In this document: piece after piece, positions 1,009 to 27,206 of the stretch
Layout of the letters: every line of letters begins with the position of its first letter
Position numbering within the stretch: the first letter of the stretch is position 1
IMG/VR virus record: IMGVR_UViG_2563366822_000012
Coordinates: 1-27,206 of that record
DNA length: 27,206 nucleotides
Origin: a virus
Lineage: Duplodnaviria > Heunggongvirae > Uroviricota > Caudoviricetes
Direction: 5' to 3' (one strand)
Made by a program: the position numbers and the translations under genes
The notes under the pieces: model-generated
Seen by the model: only the letters and a program-made list of their open reading frames with translations
Told to the model about the DNA's origin: nothing
Databases searched by the model: none

Positions 1009-1083
1009 GTCCTCTTAGTTAAATGGATATAACGAGCCCCTCCTAAGGGCTAATTGCAGGTTCGATTCCTGCAGGGGACACCA
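1009..1083 (+). tRNA. argW: tRNA-Arg (anticodon CCU); phage attachment target
   Basis: 75-nt sequence GTCCTCTTAGTTAAATGGATATAACGAGCCCCTCCTAAGGGCTAATTGCAGGTTCGATTCCTGCAGGGGACACCA: acceptor stem, D-arm, anticodon loop CT-CCT-AA, T-arm GGTTCGATTCC and 3' CCA are all visible; matches my memory of E. coli argW. Confidence 0.9.
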
Positions 1084-2595: not shown

Positions 2596-3183
2596 ATGTT
2601 GGTAGATAAGATATTGCACAAAACTGGATTATTTGACTTTCTGGACAAAATTTTAATAACCCGTCCTTTCGCTATTGTATCCAATAACTGCTGGGGCTAT
2701 AGACTATATAAAAATATAGGGCTTGAATATAATACTCCCTTTATCGGCCTGTACATCACAGCATCTGATTTTGTTGAAATGTGTATTAATTTGGAGCATT
2801 TTTTATCAAGAGACATTGTTGAAAGCGATTTCATTAATACAGAGCATAATTTCCCCGTTGCATTTGTGGATGGAGTAAAAATATACTTTATGCATTATAA
2901 CTCAAGGGCAGAAGCCATGGATAAATGGAATAGAAGAATAAAAAGACTTCAATCTTTTATATCATCACATGGCCTTGATAGAGTTGTTTTTAAAATGTGT
3001 GATAGAGATGGAAGTTACATGGATGTAATGAAATTTAATGAGTTAAAAATAAAAAGAACGATATCTTTCACCTCGAAAGAAAACAAAGGACTCGTTGAGA
3101 GCAATGGTAATATTTACCCGGGAGATGTATTGTTCAACTTCAGACACAGATATTATCTCAAGTATATCAAAACATTTAGATAA
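2596..3183 (+). CDS. Hypothetical cytoplasmic protein, 195 aa; low-GC cargo gene; possible DUF1919-like polysaccharide-modification protein (tentative)
   Basis: ATG 2596 preceded by AAGGA about 9 nt upstream. Visibly AT-rich compared with neighbours, with an AT-rich upstream region 2460-2590. N-terminal motif FAIVSNNCWGYRLY resembles what I recall as the DUF1919 signature. No transmembrane segments. Confidence 0.7.
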   Translation: MLVDKILHKTGLFDFLDKILITRPFAIVSNNCWGYRLYKNIGLEYNTPFIGLYITASDFVEMCINLEHFLSRDIVESDFINTEHNFPVAFVDGVKIYFMHYNSRAEAMDKWNRRIKRLQSFISSHGLDRVVFKMCDRDGSYMDVMKFNELKIKRTISFTSKENKGLVESNGNIYPGDVLFNFRHRYYLKYIKTFR

Positions 3184-9774: not shown

Positions 9775-10269
9775 CTATCTGAGTTGAACATCAATGGAAT
9801 AAATATCACCACTCTTTATAAATTTAGAATCTGTCCTTTCATCAAAAGATTCAAATGACTGTACCTTTAAAAACTTTTTCATTTTATTTTCAAAAATACT
9901 TTCATTAACACCAGTTAAATACTTGAACGCTCTACCAGCAAGGACCTCATTACTTAAATCCATTGTGTTTTTATTGTCTTTGCAAAACCAAACAATAACC
10001 TTTTGTGGGCATGATGGATTATAAACAGATATATAAAACTGCGGCTCATATTTTTCATCAGCGTCATCACTAAGCATTTCTTCAGAAGATAATTCTCTTC
10101 TGAATTCATATTGCCGCTTAGTTATTCCTTCATCCTTTATTATCTCTTGCTTAACTGGTGCAATACCTATAGAAGAGATTAATTCTGACTCATTAAAGCT
10201 GAACTTACACTCCTCCGCGGCCAAGTTAAAAGATAAAAGTGCAGATATAAAAAAAACAAAGATACGCAT
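9775..10269 (-). CDS. Hypothetical secreted protein, about 164 aa, with N-terminal signal peptide; low-GC moron inside the tail operon
   Basis: ORF track gives 9775..10287; the internal ATG at 10269 has a GAAGGGA Shine-Dalgarno and yields MRIFVFFISALLSFNLAAEE…, a classic Sec signal peptide. Strongly AT-rich versus flanking tail genes; about 90-100 bp intergenic spacers on both sides, unlike the tightly packed neighbours. Confidence 0.7.
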   Translation of the reverse strand: MRIFVFFISALLSFNLAAEECKFSFNESELISSIGIAPVKQEIIKDEGITKRQYEFRRELSSEEMLSDDADEKYEPQFYISVYNPSCPQKVIVWFCKDNKNTMDLSNEVLAGRAFKYLTGVNESIFENKMKKFLKVQSFESFDERTDSKFIKSGDIYSIDVQLR

Positions 10270-10368
10270 AATCATCCCTTCAATCATTTGTAAGGAATGA
10301 TTATATTAACTACTTAAAGCTGAAAACCCAAATTATGCCAGACAAAAACACATTAATCATTTTGTACA

Positions 10369-16647: not shown

Positions 16648-17853
16648 TTACGCCGCTGCAATCTTCAGCAGTTTGATGGCCTGCGAATCGACCAGCATCC
16701 CGCCGGTGCGCTTGGTGGTATAAAAACCGACAAACGGTTTATTGGTGTACGGGTCACGCAGAATGCGGGTGCCGATACGGTCAACGATGGTGTAACCCCG
16801 TTTGAAGTTACCAAATGCAATGGCTTTCGCATCAGCGGCGATATCCGGCATCTGTTCGTTTTCAGCGATACCGTAACCCGCCAGAGAGGACGGCTGCCCC
16901 AGTTCCAGCCCAGGACGCCACAGATAGTTACCCTCGGTGTCTTTCAGCAGACGGATGGCAAACAGGCTGTTGTTGTTCATCATGAACTTCGCGCCAGTGC
17001 GGTGTGCCTTTCGCAGCGTGTAAATCAGTTTGATAATGGCGTCTGCGGTCACCGCAGTCGCGTCGCCGGATACAATATGCTGAAGTTTGCCGAACGCCCG
17101 GACCTTGTCGGTTTCATCGGTGGATTCATACGCCAGGAACCCTTTCGGCTTCTTGGTGCCATCGCCGGAGGTAAAGGCAATTTCTTCCTGTTCGGTAAAT
17201 TCGGTTGCCAGCTCGCTGTTGATCCAGGCCTCCACGTTGAAGAAGGCATCGTCCAGCATTTTCTGGGTAGCCTGCGGGTTGCCGTAGATTTCCCCCATGA
17301 GAGGTTCAATCAGCTCCAGTCTGGAGGTGGCAGTCTGGGATCGCGTATCCGTTTCCCCCACCCATCCGGAAGCCGTACCGCCCAGATTCACCAGTTTTTT
17401 GTAGTCGGAACCGCCAACGGTGATCACCGTGGCTTCCTGACGCATCACCACTTCATCTTTCAGCAGGGTGAGAATGTTGCGATCCAGTTCTTCCGGCACG
17501 GCGTAGCCACCGTCTTCATCGGTACCCACCTGCAATGCCTTACGCTCCAGATCGCGCAGACCGTCTTCACGGCCTTTACGCAGGAAGCCCACAAACGCCT
17601 CTTTATGCTCGGTGGCCAGTTTATTTTGCGCTCCACCAGCCGGACGTTTCAGCTCAAGCAGCTCTTTTTCAAGGTCGCTTTTGAGATTTTCCAGCTCGCT
17701 GAGTTTCCCGTTCAGAGTTTCCACCTGCCCGGCAAGTTTGCCTTTTTCCTGCTCAATCGCATCCACGCGCTTGTCGTTCTTTGCTTTGAAGTCGTCAAAC
17801 TTCTGCTGCAGCTCCTGCGCGACCTGTTCGACATCTTTAATATCAACCGCCAT
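16648..17853 (-). CDS. Major capsid protein, HK97 family
   Basis: 401-aa ORF; ATG 17853 preceded by AGGAG; N-terminal coiled-coil-like delta region (…LNGKLSELENLKSDLEKELLELK…) followed by the capsid body, as in HK97-type capsid proteins; follows the prohead protease. Confidence 0.92.
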   Translation of the reverse strand: MAVDIKDVEQVAQELQQKFDDFKAKNDKRVDAIEQEKGKLAGQVETLNGKLSELENLKSDLEKELLELKRPAGGAQNKLATEHKEAFVGFLRKGREDGLRDLERKALQVGTDEDGGYAVPEELDRNILTLLKDEVVMRQEATVITVGGSDYKKLVNLGGTASGWVGETDTRSQTATSRLELIEPLMGEIYGNPQATQKMLDDAFFNVEAWINSELATEFTEQEEIAFTSGDGTKKPKGFLAYESTDETDKVRAFGKLQHIVSGDATAVTADAIIKLIYTLRKAHRTGAKFMMNNNSLFAIRLLKDTEGNYLWRPGLELGQPSSLAGYGIAENEQMPDIAADAKAIAFGNFKRGYTIVDRIGTRILRDPYTNKPFVGFYTTKRTGGMLVDSQAIKLLKIAAA

Positions 17854-17966
17854 CGTATTTCTCCTGATTAGAAGTTCAGATTTTTCAGTGCATTCAGTGC
17901 AGAGCCCACATCCTCAGCGTCGCGCAGGGACAGTGCGCCATAGCCCCCGGCCATGAATGCTTTGGC

Positions 17967-18518
17967 CTAGGTACGGGAGAGTCCGACATCACGCAGGACT
18001 CTTTCGATTTTTTTCTGTTCGGGGATTTCCCCGCGGGCCAGTGCGTTCTTGACGTCGCTGATCCGCGCCTCGTCGTTAGACGGGAACGTCACCAGGCTGA
18101 CTTCCCAGAGGTCGATTTCTTTCAGCAGAAAGGCTTCTTTGCTCCGGTCGTATTCCCAGTCTTTCAGGACGTACCCAATAGAAAGGCCGGTTAACGAACC
18201 GGCCTTCATGTGTGCATGTGCGCGTTTTGCGAGGGGATCATCATCAATAAGCAACCGTCCCCTGACGTAAAGCCCGACATCGTCTTCCTTCATTTCGGTG
18301 TAAACACCGATGGGTTCATCCATGCGGTGCTGCCAGAGCAGCGCAGGTAACGCTTTTCTGTCACTCCACGCCCGCAGGGAAGCAGCAAATGCCCCGGACA
18401 TCACCACATCATCGTGGCTGTCCTTTACACCAAAGACGGAGCCATACCCTTCAAACTCACCGGAGTCACTGACAGATTTCAGACTCAGCGGTACATCAAG
18501 ACGTTGTTTCGTCTGCAT
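17967..18518 (-). CDS. Prohead protease, HK97 family; apparently C-terminally truncated by an in-frame TAG
   Basis: ORF track gives 17967..18554; ATG 18518 has an AAGGA Shine-Dalgarno and is the more plausible start. The frame ends at TAG (17969-17967) but continues open for 28 more codons (AKAFMAGGYGALSLRDAEDVGSALNALKNLNF) to a TAA at 17870-17868, just before the capsid RBS. Confidence 0.85.
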   Translation of the reverse strand: MQTKQRLDVPLSLKSVSDSGEFEGYGSVFGVKDSHDDVVMSGAFAASLRAWSDRKALPALLWQHRMDEPIGVYTEMKEDDVGLYVRGRLLIDDDPLAKRAHAHMKAGSLTGLSIGYVLKDWEYDRSKEAFLLKEIDLWEVSLVTFPSNDEARISDVKNALARGEIPEQKKIERVLRDVGLSRT

Positions 18519-19737
18519 TGGCGTTATCCTTCTGCTTACCGGCCTTACTGCCATCGGAGGGTTTCGTGGTCATGTTCATCGGTGTGAGATAGACATCACC
18601 ACCGGGTCGTGGATTCATATCTTCCAGGTCGCGGCAGTCATTGGGAGAGTAAATTCCCCAGTTGATCCCGGTGGCGTAGGCTTCAAAACGGGACTTCATA
18701 TCCCCGCGCAGTAACGCCCCGGCGTTAAATTTGGCGTAATAAACGCCCTGCTTACTTTTTCGTACCAGTCCGGTGTTGATCCGCTGTTCGATGCGGGTCA
18801 GATACGGCACCAGTGAATAGTTGATAAATCCCAGCCCCAGCTCTTCGATATTGTTGAAGGTGGCGCGATCGGTGTTCTGCACCATGTGCAACGGCACCCG
18901 GAACAGACGACAGATTTCTTCAAGCTGAAACTTGCGGGTTTCCAGGAACTGACTGTCCTCGGCGTTCAGCGCCATCGACTTCCAGTCCAGCCCCATCTCA
19001 AGGATCATCGGGCGGTGAGCATTGCCAAGCCCGGTGTGACGCTCCTCAAAATCTTTCTTCAGGCGCTCATAAGCCTGATCTGACAGCGTCTGCTCTGTAC
19101 GCAACACACCGGACGTCACCGCACCATTGCTGAACAGTCTGGCCCCGTGCTCTTCGGTCGCTGCCGCCAGCGATATTGCCTCGCGGGCATAGGCGATGGG
19201 ATTCAGCCCCACCAGTCCGTCCAGCGTCAGCGTGCGCACATGCCAGATATCCTCCTGGCTCAGTACATCCGTGGAGCCGTCCGGGAATGTGACCTGATAG
19301 ACCGGCTCCCAGCTACTGTTAAGCTTCGGTACCACACAGCCGGGATCGACGGGCAGCAGTTCAGCCACTTCGCCAAATGCTTTCACTTTGTAGGCGTAAA
19401 AGTTTCCCCGCAGGCACAGACAGGTGACCACCAGCTCCCAGAACTCCTGCGGCGTCATATAGCCATTGGGATGCGTGGAGATCAGCTTATGCAGACGCTC
19501 GCCGGTTGCTCTCTGTTTCAGGCTGCCGTTCAGGTGATACAGATTGCAGGGCAACATCCCGACCGACTCTGCCAGCACCCTGACGCAGGAAAAAACCGCC
19601 GTCAGTCGCATGGCCCGCTGGCTGCTGATCTGCTTTCCGGTATAGGTGTCGTAGGACAACCCGATAGCATCCGCCAGCTCTGCTGGCGTGGTCACCGGTG
19701 CGTCACTTTTTCGTTGAAATAATCCCGAAAAGAACAC
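18496..19737 (-). CDS. Portal protein, HK97 family
   Basis: 413-aa ORF between terminase and protease; GTG start overlapping the stop of the upstream small ORF (TAGTG). Confidence 0.9.
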   Translation of the reverse strand: MFFSGLFQRKSDAPVTTPAELADAIGLSYDTYTGKQISSQRAMRLTAVFSCVRVLAESVGMLPCNLYHLNGSLKQRATGERLHKLISTHPNGYMTPQEFWELVVTCLCLRGNFYAYKVKAFGEVAELLPVDPGCVVPKLNSSWEPVYQVTFPDGSTDVLSQEDIWHVRTLTLDGLVGLNPIAYAREAISLAAATEEHGARLFSNGAVTSGVLRTEQTLSDQAYERLKKDFEERHTGLGNAHRPMILEMGLDWKSMALNAEDSQFLETRKFQLEEICRLFRVPLHMVQNTDRATFNNIEELGLGFINYSLVPYLTRIEQRINTGLVRKSKQGVYYAKFNAGALLRGDMKSRFEAYATGINWGIYSPNDCRDLEDMNPRPGGDVYLTPMNMTTKPSDGSKAGKQKDNANADETTS

Positions 19738-19930: not shown

Positions 19931-21664
19931 TTAAAGCGAGCGGATCCCATAGGACTCAATGTGGTCGGACAGCGTGTCTTCTTTCTCATACAGCATGGCT
20001 CTGCCAACCGCCATAATCAGCGCAACTGCACCATCGATTTTGTTTTCCGCCTGCTCTTTGACGGGCTTCACCACATCATCGTTACCCGGAATGGTTTTGC
20101 CGACCACGTTGCCGATACACCAGGTCATGATGGGATTGCCATCATGATGAAAGCGCCCCGATTCAATTGCCGCTTCCAGCTCTTTCATCGGGTCGGACAT
20201 GTTGGTGTAGTTCTGAATGATAGTGATGGGGTTCAGGTCTTCATCAGCAAGGTCATGTGACAACCCGGTCGCCCCGAAGGGGTCGATGGGTGACTCACTG
20301 ACCGGGCTGATTTTGTTCGCCGCTTTGGCCTCCTCGAGGATGTAGCGATAATCCACCTCCGCACCATCGGTAACGGTCAAGACGCCCATTTCCACCCATT
20401 TCTGAAAGCGTTCGGCTGTCCGTCGATCTTCATTTTTCTCGACGCTGTACACCGTGTCATACGGTACCCAGAAACGCGGGGCCACACTGTAGTAATGCGT
20501 TTTACCGTCAATCTCGCGGGTATAAAGTCGCGCCATGCTGTTCATATCCAGCTTACGCGCCAGGTCAAAGGCCAGAATGCACGGCTGCCCCTCGAACTGC
20601 TCAAGGGTCAGTGATTTCTCCTCGCAGCTCTGCCAGCTCACCAGGTTGAAATACGCCGAACGCGCCGACACCCAGATATTGAGGTGTTTTGTTTTAAAGA
20701 CGTTTGCCAGACGGGCGTTATTTTTCGCACGCTGCTGCTGACTTAACAAAAATTCGCGATAAACCGACACGCCAATATTTGGATTGGCTTTTTCCAGCAC
20801 CTGCGGGTCGGTCCAGTCGTCACCTTCATCAACGGTATAGATGATCCCGAACAGTTCATCGTTGGGTACCGAACCGTTGAGCATCTCGATAACTTCCCGC
20901 CGCTTGTCGTAGCACGGCCCCTCAATGTTGTACCCGGCGGTGGTGATGGCCCACATCAGTGGCTGACGTCGCGCCCCCATCCCGGTAAGCATCGTGGTAT
21001 AAAGCGCATCGGTGGCGTGCTCGTGATATTCATCCACCACCGCACAGTGGGGTGATGAACCATCACCAGGGTTACCGATCAGCGGTTCAAACCGCGCGCC
21101 ATCCTCCGGACGGTTCATGTTTGAGGCGTTAACCTCAATCCCGAACGCTTCCGTCAGCATGGGTGTGCGTTTACACATCAGTCGCGCCGGGCGAAAGACT
21201 TCCCATGCCTGTTTCTCCGTCGTGGCACCGGAATACACTTCCGCGCCGAACTCGTTATCACAGGCAAAACAATACAGGGCAACACCGGCAGAGATTGCCG
21301 ATTTGCCGTTCTTACGGGGAATTTCGGTATACACCTCACGGAAGCGGCGCAGCCGGGAGCCTTTATTGACCCAGCCAAACGCGCAGCAGATCACAAAGAG
21401 CTGCCACGGCTCCAGCGTGATGGGCATCCGTTTAAATGCCCACTCACCCTTGGTGTGCGGCAACAGCTGAATAAATTTGGCGGCCCGTTCAGCCAGCTCC
21501 TTGTCGAAGCGGTAACGAAACGACTTACTTTTTTCCGCCATCAGGTCATCAAGATGGCGCTGGCAGGCCTGAATCACAAACTGGCAGGCCACAATCTTTC
21601 CGCGCACGACATCCCGGGCATACTGATTGGCAGCATTTACGTTGGGGTAAGATTTCCGGCTCAT
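19931..21664 (-). CDS. Terminase large subunit
   Basis: 577-aa ORF in canonical position after the small terminase and before the portal; ATG 21664. Confidence 0.92.
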
Positions 21665-22288: not shown

Positions 22289-22639
22289 TCACTTTAGCCG
22301 TTCACGGGCCGTCTTCGCCTTATGGCACGGCCAGCACAGGCTCTGCAGATTACTGTCTGCATCGGTGCCGCCATGCGCTTTAGGGATGATGTGGTCAACG
22401 GTTTTAGCTTCACGCACCACACCGGCACGCAGACATAACTGACACAGGCCGTTGTCACGTTTCAGCACACGCGCACGGATAACGTCCCACTTCGAACCGT
22501 AGCCGCGCTGATGACGGGATTGTCCTGGCTTGTATTGCTTCCAGCCTTCGCTTTTGTGGCTTTCGCAGTAGCCTGACGGGTCTGTCGTGGTATTACGGCA
22601 ACCTCGAGCACGGCAGGCTTTTGGGATTCGTGGCGGCAT
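22289..22639 (-). CDS. HNH endonuclease (terminase-associated, HK97 gp74-like)
   Basis: 116-aa ORF with Cys-x2-Cys pairs and …DHIIPKAHGGTDADSNLQSLCWPCH…; located immediately upstream of the small terminase gene. Confidence 0.85.
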   Translation of the reverse strand: MPPRIPKACRARGCRNTTTDPSGYCESHKSEGWKQYKPGQSRHQRGYGSKWDVIRARVLKRDNGLCQLCLRAGVVREAKTVDHIIPKAHGGTDADSNLQSLCWPCHKAKTARERLK

Positions 22640-23051: not shown

Positions 23052-23570
23052 TCACTTTGGCAGTCCGGGGATCGATATTTGCGCCTGCTGCTCAAGCCTT
23101 TCGATTCTTGCTATGAGTTGCGGTTTTTTGATCCTGCCCCAGCGGTTCAGCAAGCGTCCTGACATACTGGCAACATCCTTTTCCTTCATGAACTCCAGCA
23201 TTAACTCGTTGTGCTCTCTTTGGTATGAGTGAGCCAACTCCATCAGCCTGTCACGCATCCAATTAAATGCTTTGATAAACGCCTCTTTGATGGCGGCAGC
23301 TTTTTTGCCGGTAAACGACATGATGATGTACATCGCGCCGTCTTTGGAAATTTCATATTCAACATACTGATTACCCTTGTGTTCATAGGTAACCCGCGAA
23401 AAGTTGCTGGTTAGAAATTCATCCGAACAGTCTAGCTTTTCGATTTTCTGAATGATGTGGTGATGCTGCTTGTCGAAGTAAGCTGCTACCTTGCGGGAGG
23501 TTGTGATCACGCGATCACCAGAAACAACCACCATGTCCCGGAAATCGAGATTAGCCAATTGATGATTCAT
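23052..23570 (-). CDS. Rha-family phage regulatory protein
   Basis: ORF track gives 23052..23783; the internal ATG at 23570 (MNHQLANLDFRDMVVVSGDRVITTSRKVAAYFDKQHHHIIQKIEKL…) matches the usual Rha N-terminus. The upstream 71 codons overlap a structured intergenic region and are probably not translated. Confidence 0.75.
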   Translation of the reverse strand: MNHQLANLDFRDMVVVSGDRVITTSRKVAAYFDKQHHHIIQKIEKLDCSDEFLTSNFSRVTYEHKGNQYVEYEISKDGAMYIIMSFTGKKAAAIKEAFIKAFNWMRDRLMELAHSYQREHNELMLEFMKEKDVASMSGRLLNRWGRIKKPQLIARIERLEQQAQISIPGLPK

Positions 23571-23710
23571 AGCGTCTTTACCTTTTAGAAAGTGAGCCTG
23601 TCTCACAGAAAAGCCGCCCGAGAGAGGTCGCCACCTATAACGGCTTTTCTCAGGCTCGCTTACTGAAAGGCTCTCGTTAATATGCGCGTGAGATGCGCTG
23701 TGAAATTCAG

Positions 23711-23737
23711 ATATAAAAAAGCCCCGCACCGCGAGGC
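23711..23737 (-). terminator. Putative intrinsic terminator downstream of the lysis cassette
   Basis: Minus-strand GCCTCGCGGTGCGGGGC (imperfect hairpin) followed by TTTTTTAT, about 35 nt after the Rz stop. Confidence 0.4.
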
Positions 23738-23770
23738 TCATTAAATTGACTTTGTGATTTGCAAAAAAAT

Positions 23771-24232
23771 TTATTTCAGGCATTGCGTCCTGATGTATTC
23801 CTGCAGGTAGTTAACCTGCGCGGTTATCCTGTCGATTCCGCTTCGTAGACGGTAATAATTGAGTTCAGCATCTGCTGTAAGTCTTGGGCTTTCTCCATCG
23901 CCCATGCTGCTGGCTCCGGTCGTTGACTTTGCACAGGTGGCGGCGACTTGCAGGCGCTTACGCCCAGCAGAAACATCAGCACGGAGACTTTCGATAGTCG
24001 CGTTAGCATCAGCAAGCTCCTTTGTATATCTGGCATCGAGTTCTGCTACGTCACGTTGACGCTTCTGCATATCAGAGATCGTCGCCATAGCCGAATCTAA
24101 TGCCATAGCGTTTTCGTCGCGCTGTTTTTTGTATTCAATGGCTTTATTGTGGTAATGATTAGCTGACCAGACGAGAGAACCGAATAAAGTCAGGAGAAAA
24201 GCAGAAATAACCAGCTTATAGCGAAGTTTCAT
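23771..24232 (-). CDS. Rz: Rz i-spanin (inner-membrane spanin subunit)
   Basis: ORF track starts at TTG 24265; ATG 24232 gives [27 protein letters not shown]…, an N-terminal membrane anchor followed by a coiled-coil region, laid out like lambda Rz; follows R. Confidence 0.85.
   Translation of the reverse strand: MKLRYKLVISAFLLTLFGSLVWSANHYHNKAIEYKKQRDENAMALDSAMATISDMQKRQRDVAELDARYTKELADANATIESLRADVSAGRKRLQVAATCAKSTTGASSMGDGESPRLTADAELNYYRLRSGIDRITAQVNYLQEYIRTQCLK
23824..24009 (-). CDS. Rz1: Rz1 o-spanin lipoprotein, embedded in the +1 frame of Rz
   Basis: ATG 24009 gives MLTRLSKVSVLMFLLGVSAC-KSPPPVQSQRPEPAAW…: signal peptide with lipobox-like LGVSAC, then a proline-rich mature region. Entirely nested within Rz, as in lambda. 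Confidence 0.65.
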   Translation of the reverse strand: MLTRLSKVSVLMFLLGVSACKSPPPVQSQRPEPAAWAMEKAQDLQQMLNSIITVYEAESTG

Positions 24233-25667: not shown

Positions 25668-26291
25668 CTAACGTGTGACCGCATTCAAAATGTTGTCTGC
25701 GATTGACTCTTCTTTGTGGCATTGCACCACCAGAGCGTCATACAGCGGCTTAACAGTGCGTGACCAGGTGGGTTGAGTAAGGTTTGGGATTAGCATCGTT
25801 ACAGCGCGATATGCGGCGCTTGCTGGCATTCTTGAATAGCCGACACCTTTGCATCTTCCGCATTCTTTCTCAACAACTCTCCCCCACTGCTCTGTTTTGG
25901 CAATATCAACCGCCCGACCTGTACCGTGGCAATCTCTGCATCTTGCGCCCGGAGTCGCGGCACTACGGCAATAATCAGCATAAGCGAATGTTGCGAGCAC
26001 TTGCAGTACCTTTGCCTTAGTATTTCCTTCGAGCTTTGCCACACCACGGTATTTCCCCGATACCTTGTGTGCAAATTGCATCAGATAGTTGATAGCCTTT
26101 TGTTTGTCGTTCTGGCTGAGTTCGTGCTTACCACAGAATGCAGCCATTCCGAATCCGGCTTGTGATTGCGCCATCCCCATAGCAGCCATCACATCAGTAC
26201 CGGAAAGAGAGTCAGAAGCCGTAGCCCGTGGTGAGTCGCTCATCATCGGGCTTTTTGGCGAATGAAATTTAGCTACGTTTTCGAGTCTCAT
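25668..26291 (-). CDS. Q: Late-gene antiterminator Q (lambda-type)
   Basis: 207-aa [34 protein letters not shown]… with the zinc-binding CRDCHGTGR…CGRCKG motif; near-identical to lambda Q from memory. Confidence 0.93.
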
Positions 26292-26953
26292 GCGCCTTCT
26301 CCCTGTACCTGAATCAATGTGAGATTTCCGCAGAACACTGCGCCGGTATCGATATACATCTGGTTGGCAAACTTGAGTGGTTTCACTGCTGGCGTATGAC
26401 CAAAGATGAACGCGTCCGCGCCTTTAATTTCTTTCACGATCCCGTCTTGTGAGTTGCTGATTCGTTCGCGGTTCCAGATTACCTGCTGATGATCAACTGG
26501 CTTTCCAAACTCGTATTCGTCACAAGGATAATCGGCGTGGCAGATGACATATTTTTTATCTTTGCTCACCAGTTCGATGATTAACGGAAGTTCATCTGCT
26601 TTATGGGAAAGAGCTTTAGCCAGAATTTCTTTGTCGTAATCGAGATTAAAGAACCAGCCACCGCCATTAAGTAGCCAGTGATTGACGTTTCCACGCTCTG
26701 ATAAGCCATCAATCATCATTTGCTCATGGTTTCCACGTACAGCTCTGAACCAGGGGAATGTGATTAATTCCAGGCATTCGACGTTCTCTGCACCGCGATC
26801 GACCAAATCGCCAACCGAGATAAGCAGGTCTTTTTGGGTGTCGAATCCAATCGTATCCAGTTTGTTCATCAGGTTCGTGTAACATCCGTGCAGGTCGCCA
26901 ACTACCCAAATATTTCGGTATTTGCTGCCATCAATTCTTTCGTAATAGCGCAT
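26288..26953 (-). CDS. Serine/threonine protein phosphatase (lambda-PPase / NinI-type metallophosphatase), 221 aa
   Basis: ORF track starts at GTG 27025; ATG 26953 has a GGAG Shine-Dalgarno and gives [25 protein letters not shown]…, with metallophosphatase motifs GDLHG, GDLVDRG, GNHE; ATGA overlap with Q. Confidence 0.9.
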
Positions 26954-26999: not shown

Positions 27000-27206
27000 T
27001 GAAGTGGCACACTGAATTTGGCCACCTGAACAGAGGTGATATGCTCACCTCAGAACAACACAGGTGCTCCAATGAAAAAAAGAAATTTCAGCGCAGAGTT
27101 TAAACGCGAATCCGCTCAACTGGTTGTTGACCAGAACTACACGGTGGCAGATGCCGCCAAAGCTATGGATGTTGGCCTTTCCACAATGACAAGATGGGTC
27201 AAACAA
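27000..27206 (+). mobile_element. Left end of an IS3-family insertion sequence (IS911-like), truncated by the window edge
   Basis: Begins TGAAGTGGCACACTGAATTTGGCCACC (IS3-family ends are TG…CA); 72 nt inside, an ORF starts whose translation matches IS911 OrfA from memory. Confidence 0.65.
27072..27206 (+). CDS. IS3-family transposase OrfA (helix-turn-helix N-terminal part), partial at window end
   Basis: ATG 27072; [45 protein letters not shown]… runs off the window. Confidence 0.65.

Follow-up and report, generated by a model that had tools for sequence, protein, structure and literature searches.

The prohead protease of phage HK97, gp4, is a member of the Pfam family PF04586 (MEROPS S78). 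The gene is located between the portal gene and that of a major capsid protein made with an N-terminal scaffold extension, and the catalytic residues of the enzyme, which we take to be H65 and S114, are a histidine and a serine. [quoted passage not shown] Fusion to a segment of gp4 was used to encapsidate GFP in HK97 particles (PMC11626933). What happens when the C-terminal part of a prohead protease is removed by an amber codon was described for the Salmonella phage SPN3US. Mutant 245(am66) lacks the C-terminal propeptide of this enzyme and keeps its catalytic residues; the truncated protease was active in vitro, it was absent from the proheads, and the phage was not viable without suppression (PMC7411985). 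Amber hotspots in another gene, lacI, were mapped in a collection of laboratory mutants to the second cytosine of CCAGG, where a C to T change converts a glutamine codon, CAG, into an amber codon (Coulondre, Miller, Farabaugh and Gilbert 1978; reviewed in PMC12606429). The T:G mismatch in CTWGG/CCWGG is the substrate for Vsr in very-short-patch repair, and repair driven by Vsr is reported to stimulate changes from CTAGG to CCAGG (PMC2715241).

The gene considered here is a prohead protease gene of the HK97 type, interrupted by an amber codon near its 3′-end. It is found on the minus strand of a stretch of 27,206 nucleotides, hereafter the window, and all coordinates given below refer to it. 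We compare the gene with the systems described above and consider the nature and origin of the stop codon, its distribution among related prophages, and its consequences.

The prophage remnant at argW

The window holds a remnant of a myovirus prophage similar to SfI, SfII, SfIV and ST64B, for which argW of E. coli served as the insertion site. A yfdC-like transporter gene (1-933) lies at one end of the window. It is followed by the host tRNA-Arg(CCT) gene argW (1009-1083, plus strand, detected with ARAGORN), where the prophage is attached at one of its ends, and by an integrase gene (1209-2402) with Pfam integrase domains. The late operon has at its far end the Q antiterminator gene (25668-26291), after which comes a NinI-like phosphatase gene (26288-26953). 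The latter adjoins an IS transposase fragment (27072-27206, minus strand) with a 45-aa HTH_Tnp_1 product. On the source scaffold, the host csc sucrose genes and dsdA are located within ~2 kb past the IS fragment, and partial repeats of the argW 3′-end were found 1.36 and 1.67 kb past the window end. Complete relatives carry at the position of the IS fragment the repressor gene cI, cro, cII, a DnaB-type helicase gene for replication, and nin genes. An IS-associated deletion has removed all of this region, with its early, immunity, and replication genes, and the transposase fragment now stands in its place. Since the whole early region is lost, the prophage cannot be induced on its own, and the amber codon in the protease gene is a second lesion, not the source of the defectiveness. 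The original prediction that the truncation could make the prophage defective was therefore not sustained.

The arrangement at this end of the prophage is also found in CPS-53/KpLE1, located at argW of E. coli K-12. On the K-12 map, CPS-53/KpLE1 has the same yfdC-like gene, argW, and integrase gene, and then tail-fibre genes. CPS-53/KpLE1 and the prophage in the window are both decayed remnants of one prophage type, and yfd and ymf names appear in relatives. Unlike CPS-53/KpLE1, the remnant in the window has retained the head, tail, and lysis modules in complete form. A DUF1919 gene (2596-3183, plus strand) adjoins the integrase gene. This gene may be cargo or have a role in lysogenic conversion, because the same slot holds O-antigen modification genes in the Shigella Sf phages and in CPS-53.

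The interrupted protease gene

The ORF list and the Pfam matches showed that the head genes are arranged on the minus strand in the order terminase large subunit (19931-21664), a ymfR-like ORF of 60 codons, portal protein (18496-19737), protease (17868-18518), and major capsid protein (16648-17853). The portal gene is intact (Pfam Phage_portal, 361.7 bits), and its 3′-end overlaps the start of the protease gene, an ATG at 18518-18516 (MQTKQRL...), by 23 nt. The major capsid gene is also intact. Its Pfam Phage_capsid match (265 bits) spans residues 115-398 of 401 and leaves a 114-residue N-terminal extension, a delta-like scaffold region with a weak coiled-coil match. Beyond the genes of this series, an HNH endonuclease gene (22289-22639, minus strand) is located immediately upstream of a P27-family small terminase gene, and such an HNH-terminase pairing is typical of HK97-like cos packaging modules.

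The protease frame is interrupted by a TAG codon (17967-17969) at codon 184 of the 216 found in relatives. The product has 183 aa, and 33 residues, from Gln184 to Phe216, are missing. It had been proposed that the frame stops at this TAG and stays open for a further 28 codons until a downstream TAA. The stop and the open continuation were confirmed, and the length was not: the frame remains open for 32 codons, AKAFMAGGYGALSLRDAEDVGSALNALKNLNF, and ends at a TAA at 17870-17868, while the number 28 corresponds to a sub-ORF that starts at an ATG within the same stretch (17954-17868). The orphaned coding sequence, that is, the last 32 residues of the tail and the natural TAA, occupies 17868-17966. 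This TAA sits 14 nt ahead of the capsid ATG, which is located at 17853 and is preceded by a Shine-Dalgarno sequence, AGGAG, at 17865-17861. The gap of ~110 nt that had been noticed between the protease and capsid genes is real, and the exact distance from the TAG to the capsid ATG is 113 nt of untranslated sequence. The polar effect of the amber codon on the capsid gene should be small, because a strong ribosome-binding site of its own precedes this gene, and only 113 nt before its ATG are left untranslated.

A run of 32 open codons is expected by chance with a probability of ~0.2, i.e., (61/64)^32, and the case for an amber mutation consequently rests on homology. A search for homologues across 5.8 billion proteins identified proteins with 76-90% identity in Yersinia, Xenorhabdus, Photorhabdus, Serratia, Morganella, Providencia, Pectobacterium, Kosakonia, and other genera, nearly all of them 215-218 aa long and with full coverage of the query. 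In an alignment of 30 homologues with identities of 77-90%, Q184 was invariant, as were A185, M189, G192, Y193, L211, and K212 in the tail, and a further seven tail residues, K186, A187, F188, A190, S197, R199, and F216, were conserved in at least 90% of the sequences. In another comparison between genera, all 13 of these tail residues were invariant. The similarity to HK97 gp4 (37% identity, E = 2e-27, residues 20-190) also crosses the mutated codon (...ERVLRD-VGLSRSQAKAFMA vs ...ENWLRDSVGLTKSQAVGLIA), and Gln is present in gp4 at this point. Homology runs past the TAG, then, in the 30 homologues as well as in HK97 gp4. The homologues are of about 216 aa instead of ending at the TAG, and their tail is conserved across genera. 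These results bear out the view that the continuation is genuine protein sequence.

Comparison with the closest relatives in E. coli showed the nature of the change. The best match, FDAARGOS_144, differs from the window by 1 nucleotide in 761, at position 17969, which is T in the window and C in FDAARGOS_144, where codon 184 is CAG (Gln). In the annotation of this genome, an 'HK97 family phage prohead protease' of 216 aa (WP_001193631.1) has its end 14 nt ahead of the capsid ATG, and relatives annotate a single CDS of 651 nt and 216 aa over exactly 18518-17868. A second pair of sequences gave the same result over a longer distance: the TAG-bearing E. coli SCU-123 (CGTACCTAGGCCA) and the CAG-bearing ATCC 11775 (CGTACCCAGGCCA) have 1 difference in 8,697 nt, and it is the base in codon 184. 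A single nonsense substitution, for instance CAG to TAG, had been put forward as the simplest explanation, and both comparisons agree with it. The nonsense mutation of the protease gene, from CAG (Gln184) to TAG, is genuine.

The product otherwise has the properties of the S78 family. The Pfam PF04586 match has a score of 110.7 bits (cutoff, 21) and extends over residues 14-159, covering positions 6-158 of the 165 in the profile. The residues matching H65 and S114 of gp4 are H64 and S113, both invariant in the 30 homologues. With HK97, the locus shares this catalytic histidine and serine pair, the portal-protease-capsid gene order, the N-terminal scaffold extension of the capsid protein, and the ...LRD.VGL(S/T)(R/K)SQA... 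motif that spans the mutated codon. It differs from gp4 in that the frame is interrupted at codon 184 and the last 33 residues are absent. Since the frame is cut at this codon, the copy in the window belongs to the S78 family as a pseudogene and not as a working gene. It is an ordinary nonsense pseudogene, located in a prophage that is undergoing decay, and the protease family concerned is a well-known one.

The 28-codon sub-ORF at 17954-17868 was also considered as a separately translated unit that would supply a free targeting peptide. This idea was rejected: no Shine-Dalgarno-like motif is present in the sequence upstream of its ATG, ...cctaggccaaagcattcATG, and the sub-ORF is separated from the protease frame in no allele other than the rare TAG one.

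Origin and distribution of the TAG allele

The context of codon 184 in the wild type is ACC-CAG-GCC; CAG relatives have ACCCAGG, and the window and other TAG carriers have ACCTAGG. The CTAGG found at 17966-17970 (minus strand) is what deamination of a CCAGG Dcm site yields; 17969, where the mutation lies, corresponds to the inner cytosine of the site, the one methylated by Dcm. Although the protease gene has two CCWGG sites, a stop codon is possible only from the site at codon 184. Dcm is nearly universal in E. coli. On the strength of this sequence context, the amber codon is likely to have originated by deamination of 5-methylcytosine at a Dcm site. The 5-methylcytosine at codon 184 would have been converted to thymine by spontaneous deamination, and the change would have escaped very-short-patch repair. 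The resemblance to the lacI hotspots includes the CCAGG site, the position of the mutated base at the second C, the C to T change, and the conversion of a Gln CAG codon to amber. The difference is that those hotspots were found in a laboratory mutant collection, whereas the change described here is a natural prophage polymorphism at a site presumed from its sequence to be methylated. A crude test across the 8.7-kb head/tail region showed that 4 of 48 Dcm-target positions are polymorphic, compared to a background of 3.2%, a difference that is not significant (P = 0.07), and only two of these four are deamination-type changes.

A comparatively fast, reversible toggle was contemplated as well, in which Dcm deamination turns the protease off (CAG to TAG) and Vsr repair turns it back on (CTAGG to CCAGG). 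If this were true, lineages could switch the prophage they carry from making particles to making none and back again, and the presence of the same amber codon in several otherwise intact or diverged prophages would be explained. We consider such a toggle extremely improbable.

The 761 nt around the gene were found at 97% identity or higher in ~1,060 of 5,426 complete E. coli genomes and also in the temperate phages SfI, SfII, SfIV, ST64B, phi467, and others. Most records have the protease haplotype with CAG (at least 99% identity in 733 of 1,069). The TAG allele, as identified with a 71-nt exact probe, was present in 3 of 1,050 complete-genome records: SCU-123 and SCU-108, both from rectal swabs in California, and AH21H025, from blood in Melbourne. 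In these three genomes, the PGAP label for the gene is 'HK97 family phage prohead protease, pseudogene, internal stop'; the TAG allele is thus already flagged as a pseudogene by the RefSeq annotation in sibling genomes. At the protein level, the exact 183-aa sequence was found on 206 public contigs and the exact 216-aa sequence on at least 1,000. The window does not correspond to any of the three TAG-bearing complete genomes, with which it shares 97.3% identity across the structural genes, while scaffold KB732916.1 of GCA_000351925.1 matches it at 100% identity.

A sequencing or assembly error at position 17969 was weighed as a source of the TAG in the window. The prophage background of the window is found in a single assembly, GCA_000351925.1, listed under two samples, which leaves some room for such an error. 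However, complete genomes from California and Melbourne, sequenced independently, have the identical substitution, which is found on the 206 contigs overall, and it is improbable that consensus errors would make exactly the TAG allele. For this allele in general, a sequencing error is very unlikely in view of the 206 contigs; the base in the window is itself an assembly consensus, and an error at this one position is scarcely credible.

At least three prophage backgrounds carry the TAG allele: A, the SCU-123 type; B, from GCA_900448915.1; and C, that of the window. They have 178-224 pairwise differences over 8,697 nt (2-2.6%), and their early and lysis modules are different. Two observations on the gene content of these backgrounds were made along the way. 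A Rha/ORF11CD3 regulatory gene, antirepressor-like (23052-23783, minus strand), lies right after the lysis cassette in the window and is absent from this place in backgrounds A and B. A 170-codon ORF with no Pfam match (9775-10287, minus strand) is located between the tape-measure and DNA-circularisation genes; equivalents are found in B and C (18242-18772 of sequence L006 and 18250-18744 of sequence L007, in their own numbering) and not in A, and the ORF has the look of a moron-type insertion.

A diversity trough was observed around the protease gene. Between positions 17716 and 18544 there are 0 differences over 828 nt between backgrounds, although their portal genes show a divergence of 2.1% and their capsid genes one of 3.6%; at the mean rate, the 651-nt protease gene should have ~15 differences. 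This trough suggests a recent spread of one protease haplotype by recombination.

Such a spread raises the alternative that the amber codon arose once and that a protease segment of ~800 nt carrying it was moved between related prophages. The three TAG backgrounds are indeed identical over at least 807 nt around the stop codon, compared to differences of 2-3.6% in the flanks, and up to five copies of this prophage type exist per E. coli genome, so donor and recipient can share a cell. Nonetheless, the CAG version of the same haplotype is the majority form, both among the records and in the number of contigs with the 216-aa protein, and for this reason the shared flanks carry no information on the origin of the stop codon. 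Furthermore, background A has many CAG siblings, including the type strain ATCC 11775, NU14, and MS7163, with zero other differences in 8.7 kb (the one-base-only difference over 8,697 nt was checked for ATCC 11775), and the change is the exact signature of 5-methylcytosine deamination. The pattern of the TAG allele fits recurrent mutation at the hotspot, and a single origin followed by recombination, with which the shared tract of ~800 nt would also agree, is less likely.

Effect of the truncation and decay of the prophage

The catalytic domain, with its His64/Ser113 pair, is retained entirely in the 183-aa product. In the AlphaFold model of the protease (mean pLDDT, 72.7), a beta-rich core extends to about residue 143 and is followed by helices at 146-161, 168-177, 182-195, and 204-212. 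These four helices are of low confidence, with pLDDT values of 50-65, and the last two are those removed by the stop codon. A search of the PDB sequences with the full-length protease produced no match at E ≤ 0.01. The C-terminal tail would dock the enzyme inside the assembling prohead, and a protease without this tail would stay outside, leaving the scaffold domain of the capsid protein uncleaved and the capsid without maturation. As docking of the protease would depend on the tail, the truncated enzyme is likely to be catalytically competent and not encapsidated, with the scaffold domain remaining uncleaved. The model for this reading is SPN3US 245(am66), in which an amber codon also cuts the C-terminal part of the prohead protease and spares the catalytic residues; the outcome found there, activity in vitro, exclusion from proheads, and loss of viability without suppression (PMC7411985), would apply to the protease in the window by analogy only. 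The SPN3US enzyme is a T4-type protease of a giant phage, its C-terminal part is a cleaved propeptide, and 245(am66) is an engineered or selected conditional-lethal mutant, while the allele in the window is natural.

An intact catalytic domain could also mean that the stop codon is tolerated or bypassed, i.e., that the truncated protease works, or that read-through or suppression suffices, and that the allele circulates in functional phages. The presence of the allele in three backgrounds, one of which, the SCU-123 type, looks otherwise complete, would agree with this possibility. The comparisons with homologues do not, since they show conservation of the tail between genera and no exception to Q184: codon 184 specifies Gln in all 30 homologues and in HK97 gp4, and the stop codon is not conserved. 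Neither does the rarity of TAG (3 of 1,050 complete-genome records), nor the fact that 0 of 17 related phage records (at least 95% identity) had the 100% identity expected of a TAG carrier, the best having 99.7%. The analogous truncation in SPN3US is lethal without suppression (PMC7411985), and a source of suppression was looked for in the prophages and in the hosts. ARAGORN identified no tRNA genes in the window other than the host argW, and there were none in the prophages of backgrounds A, B, and C, hence no suppressor tRNA. Of 5,424 complete E. coli records, 155 have the exact supE allele (glnV with a CUA anticodon), and the 40 that were listed are all laboratory K-12 lines; C600, DH5alpha, and DH1, used as controls, matched exactly, and the genome of the window itself is outside the scanned set. 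The original prediction had left room for a phage that depends on an amber-suppressor host or on read-through. With TAG in so few records, no tRNA gene in the prophages, and supE confined, among the listed records, to laboratory K-12 lines, this dependence finds no support, and a tolerated or bypassed stop codon is improbable. A truncated enzyme that is left out of the prohead remains our preferred reading.

The inactivation could have been selected, because a loss of head maturation might benefit the host, as in domestication, either by preventing productive lysis or by keeping only the tail and lysis functions. The window has intact tail, lysis, and Q genes, and several independent inactivating alleles of the protease exist, two facts that would be compatible with selection. 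Yet the allele is rare, the element in the window is without the early region that is needed to switch on the late genes, and the occurrence of multiple types of lesions is what neutral decay predicts. We regard selected inactivation as very improbable.

The other inactivating alleles found in the same gene are diverse. The A7 homopolymer of the protease gene (18008-18014, minus strand) is intact in the window and is a frameshift site in other genomes: two frameshift alleles at this run, P0006 and P0126, which diverge right after ...PEQK, were found in other E. coli genomes. The run thus offers a second way in which the gene is inactivated repeatedly. The Shigella boydii allele P0003 ends after residue 163, and allele P0031 has an internal duplication. 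Such varied lesions of the protease across lineages are the picture expected of neutral prophage decay. On the whole, the amber codon is probably one more lesion of neutral decay, and neither a regulatory nor a recoding device.

As regards annotation, the 183-aa 'protease' and the following 28-codon ORF ought to be combined into a single entry marked as a pseudogene, which is what PGAP does in RefSeq. The protease amber opens no new question on phage assembly or recoding. It is probably a clear case, in nature, of the textbook Dcm amber hotspot at work in a gene of a prophage and, together with the frameshifts at the A7 run of the same gene elsewhere, it shows that prophages decay via recurrent, predictable lesions.
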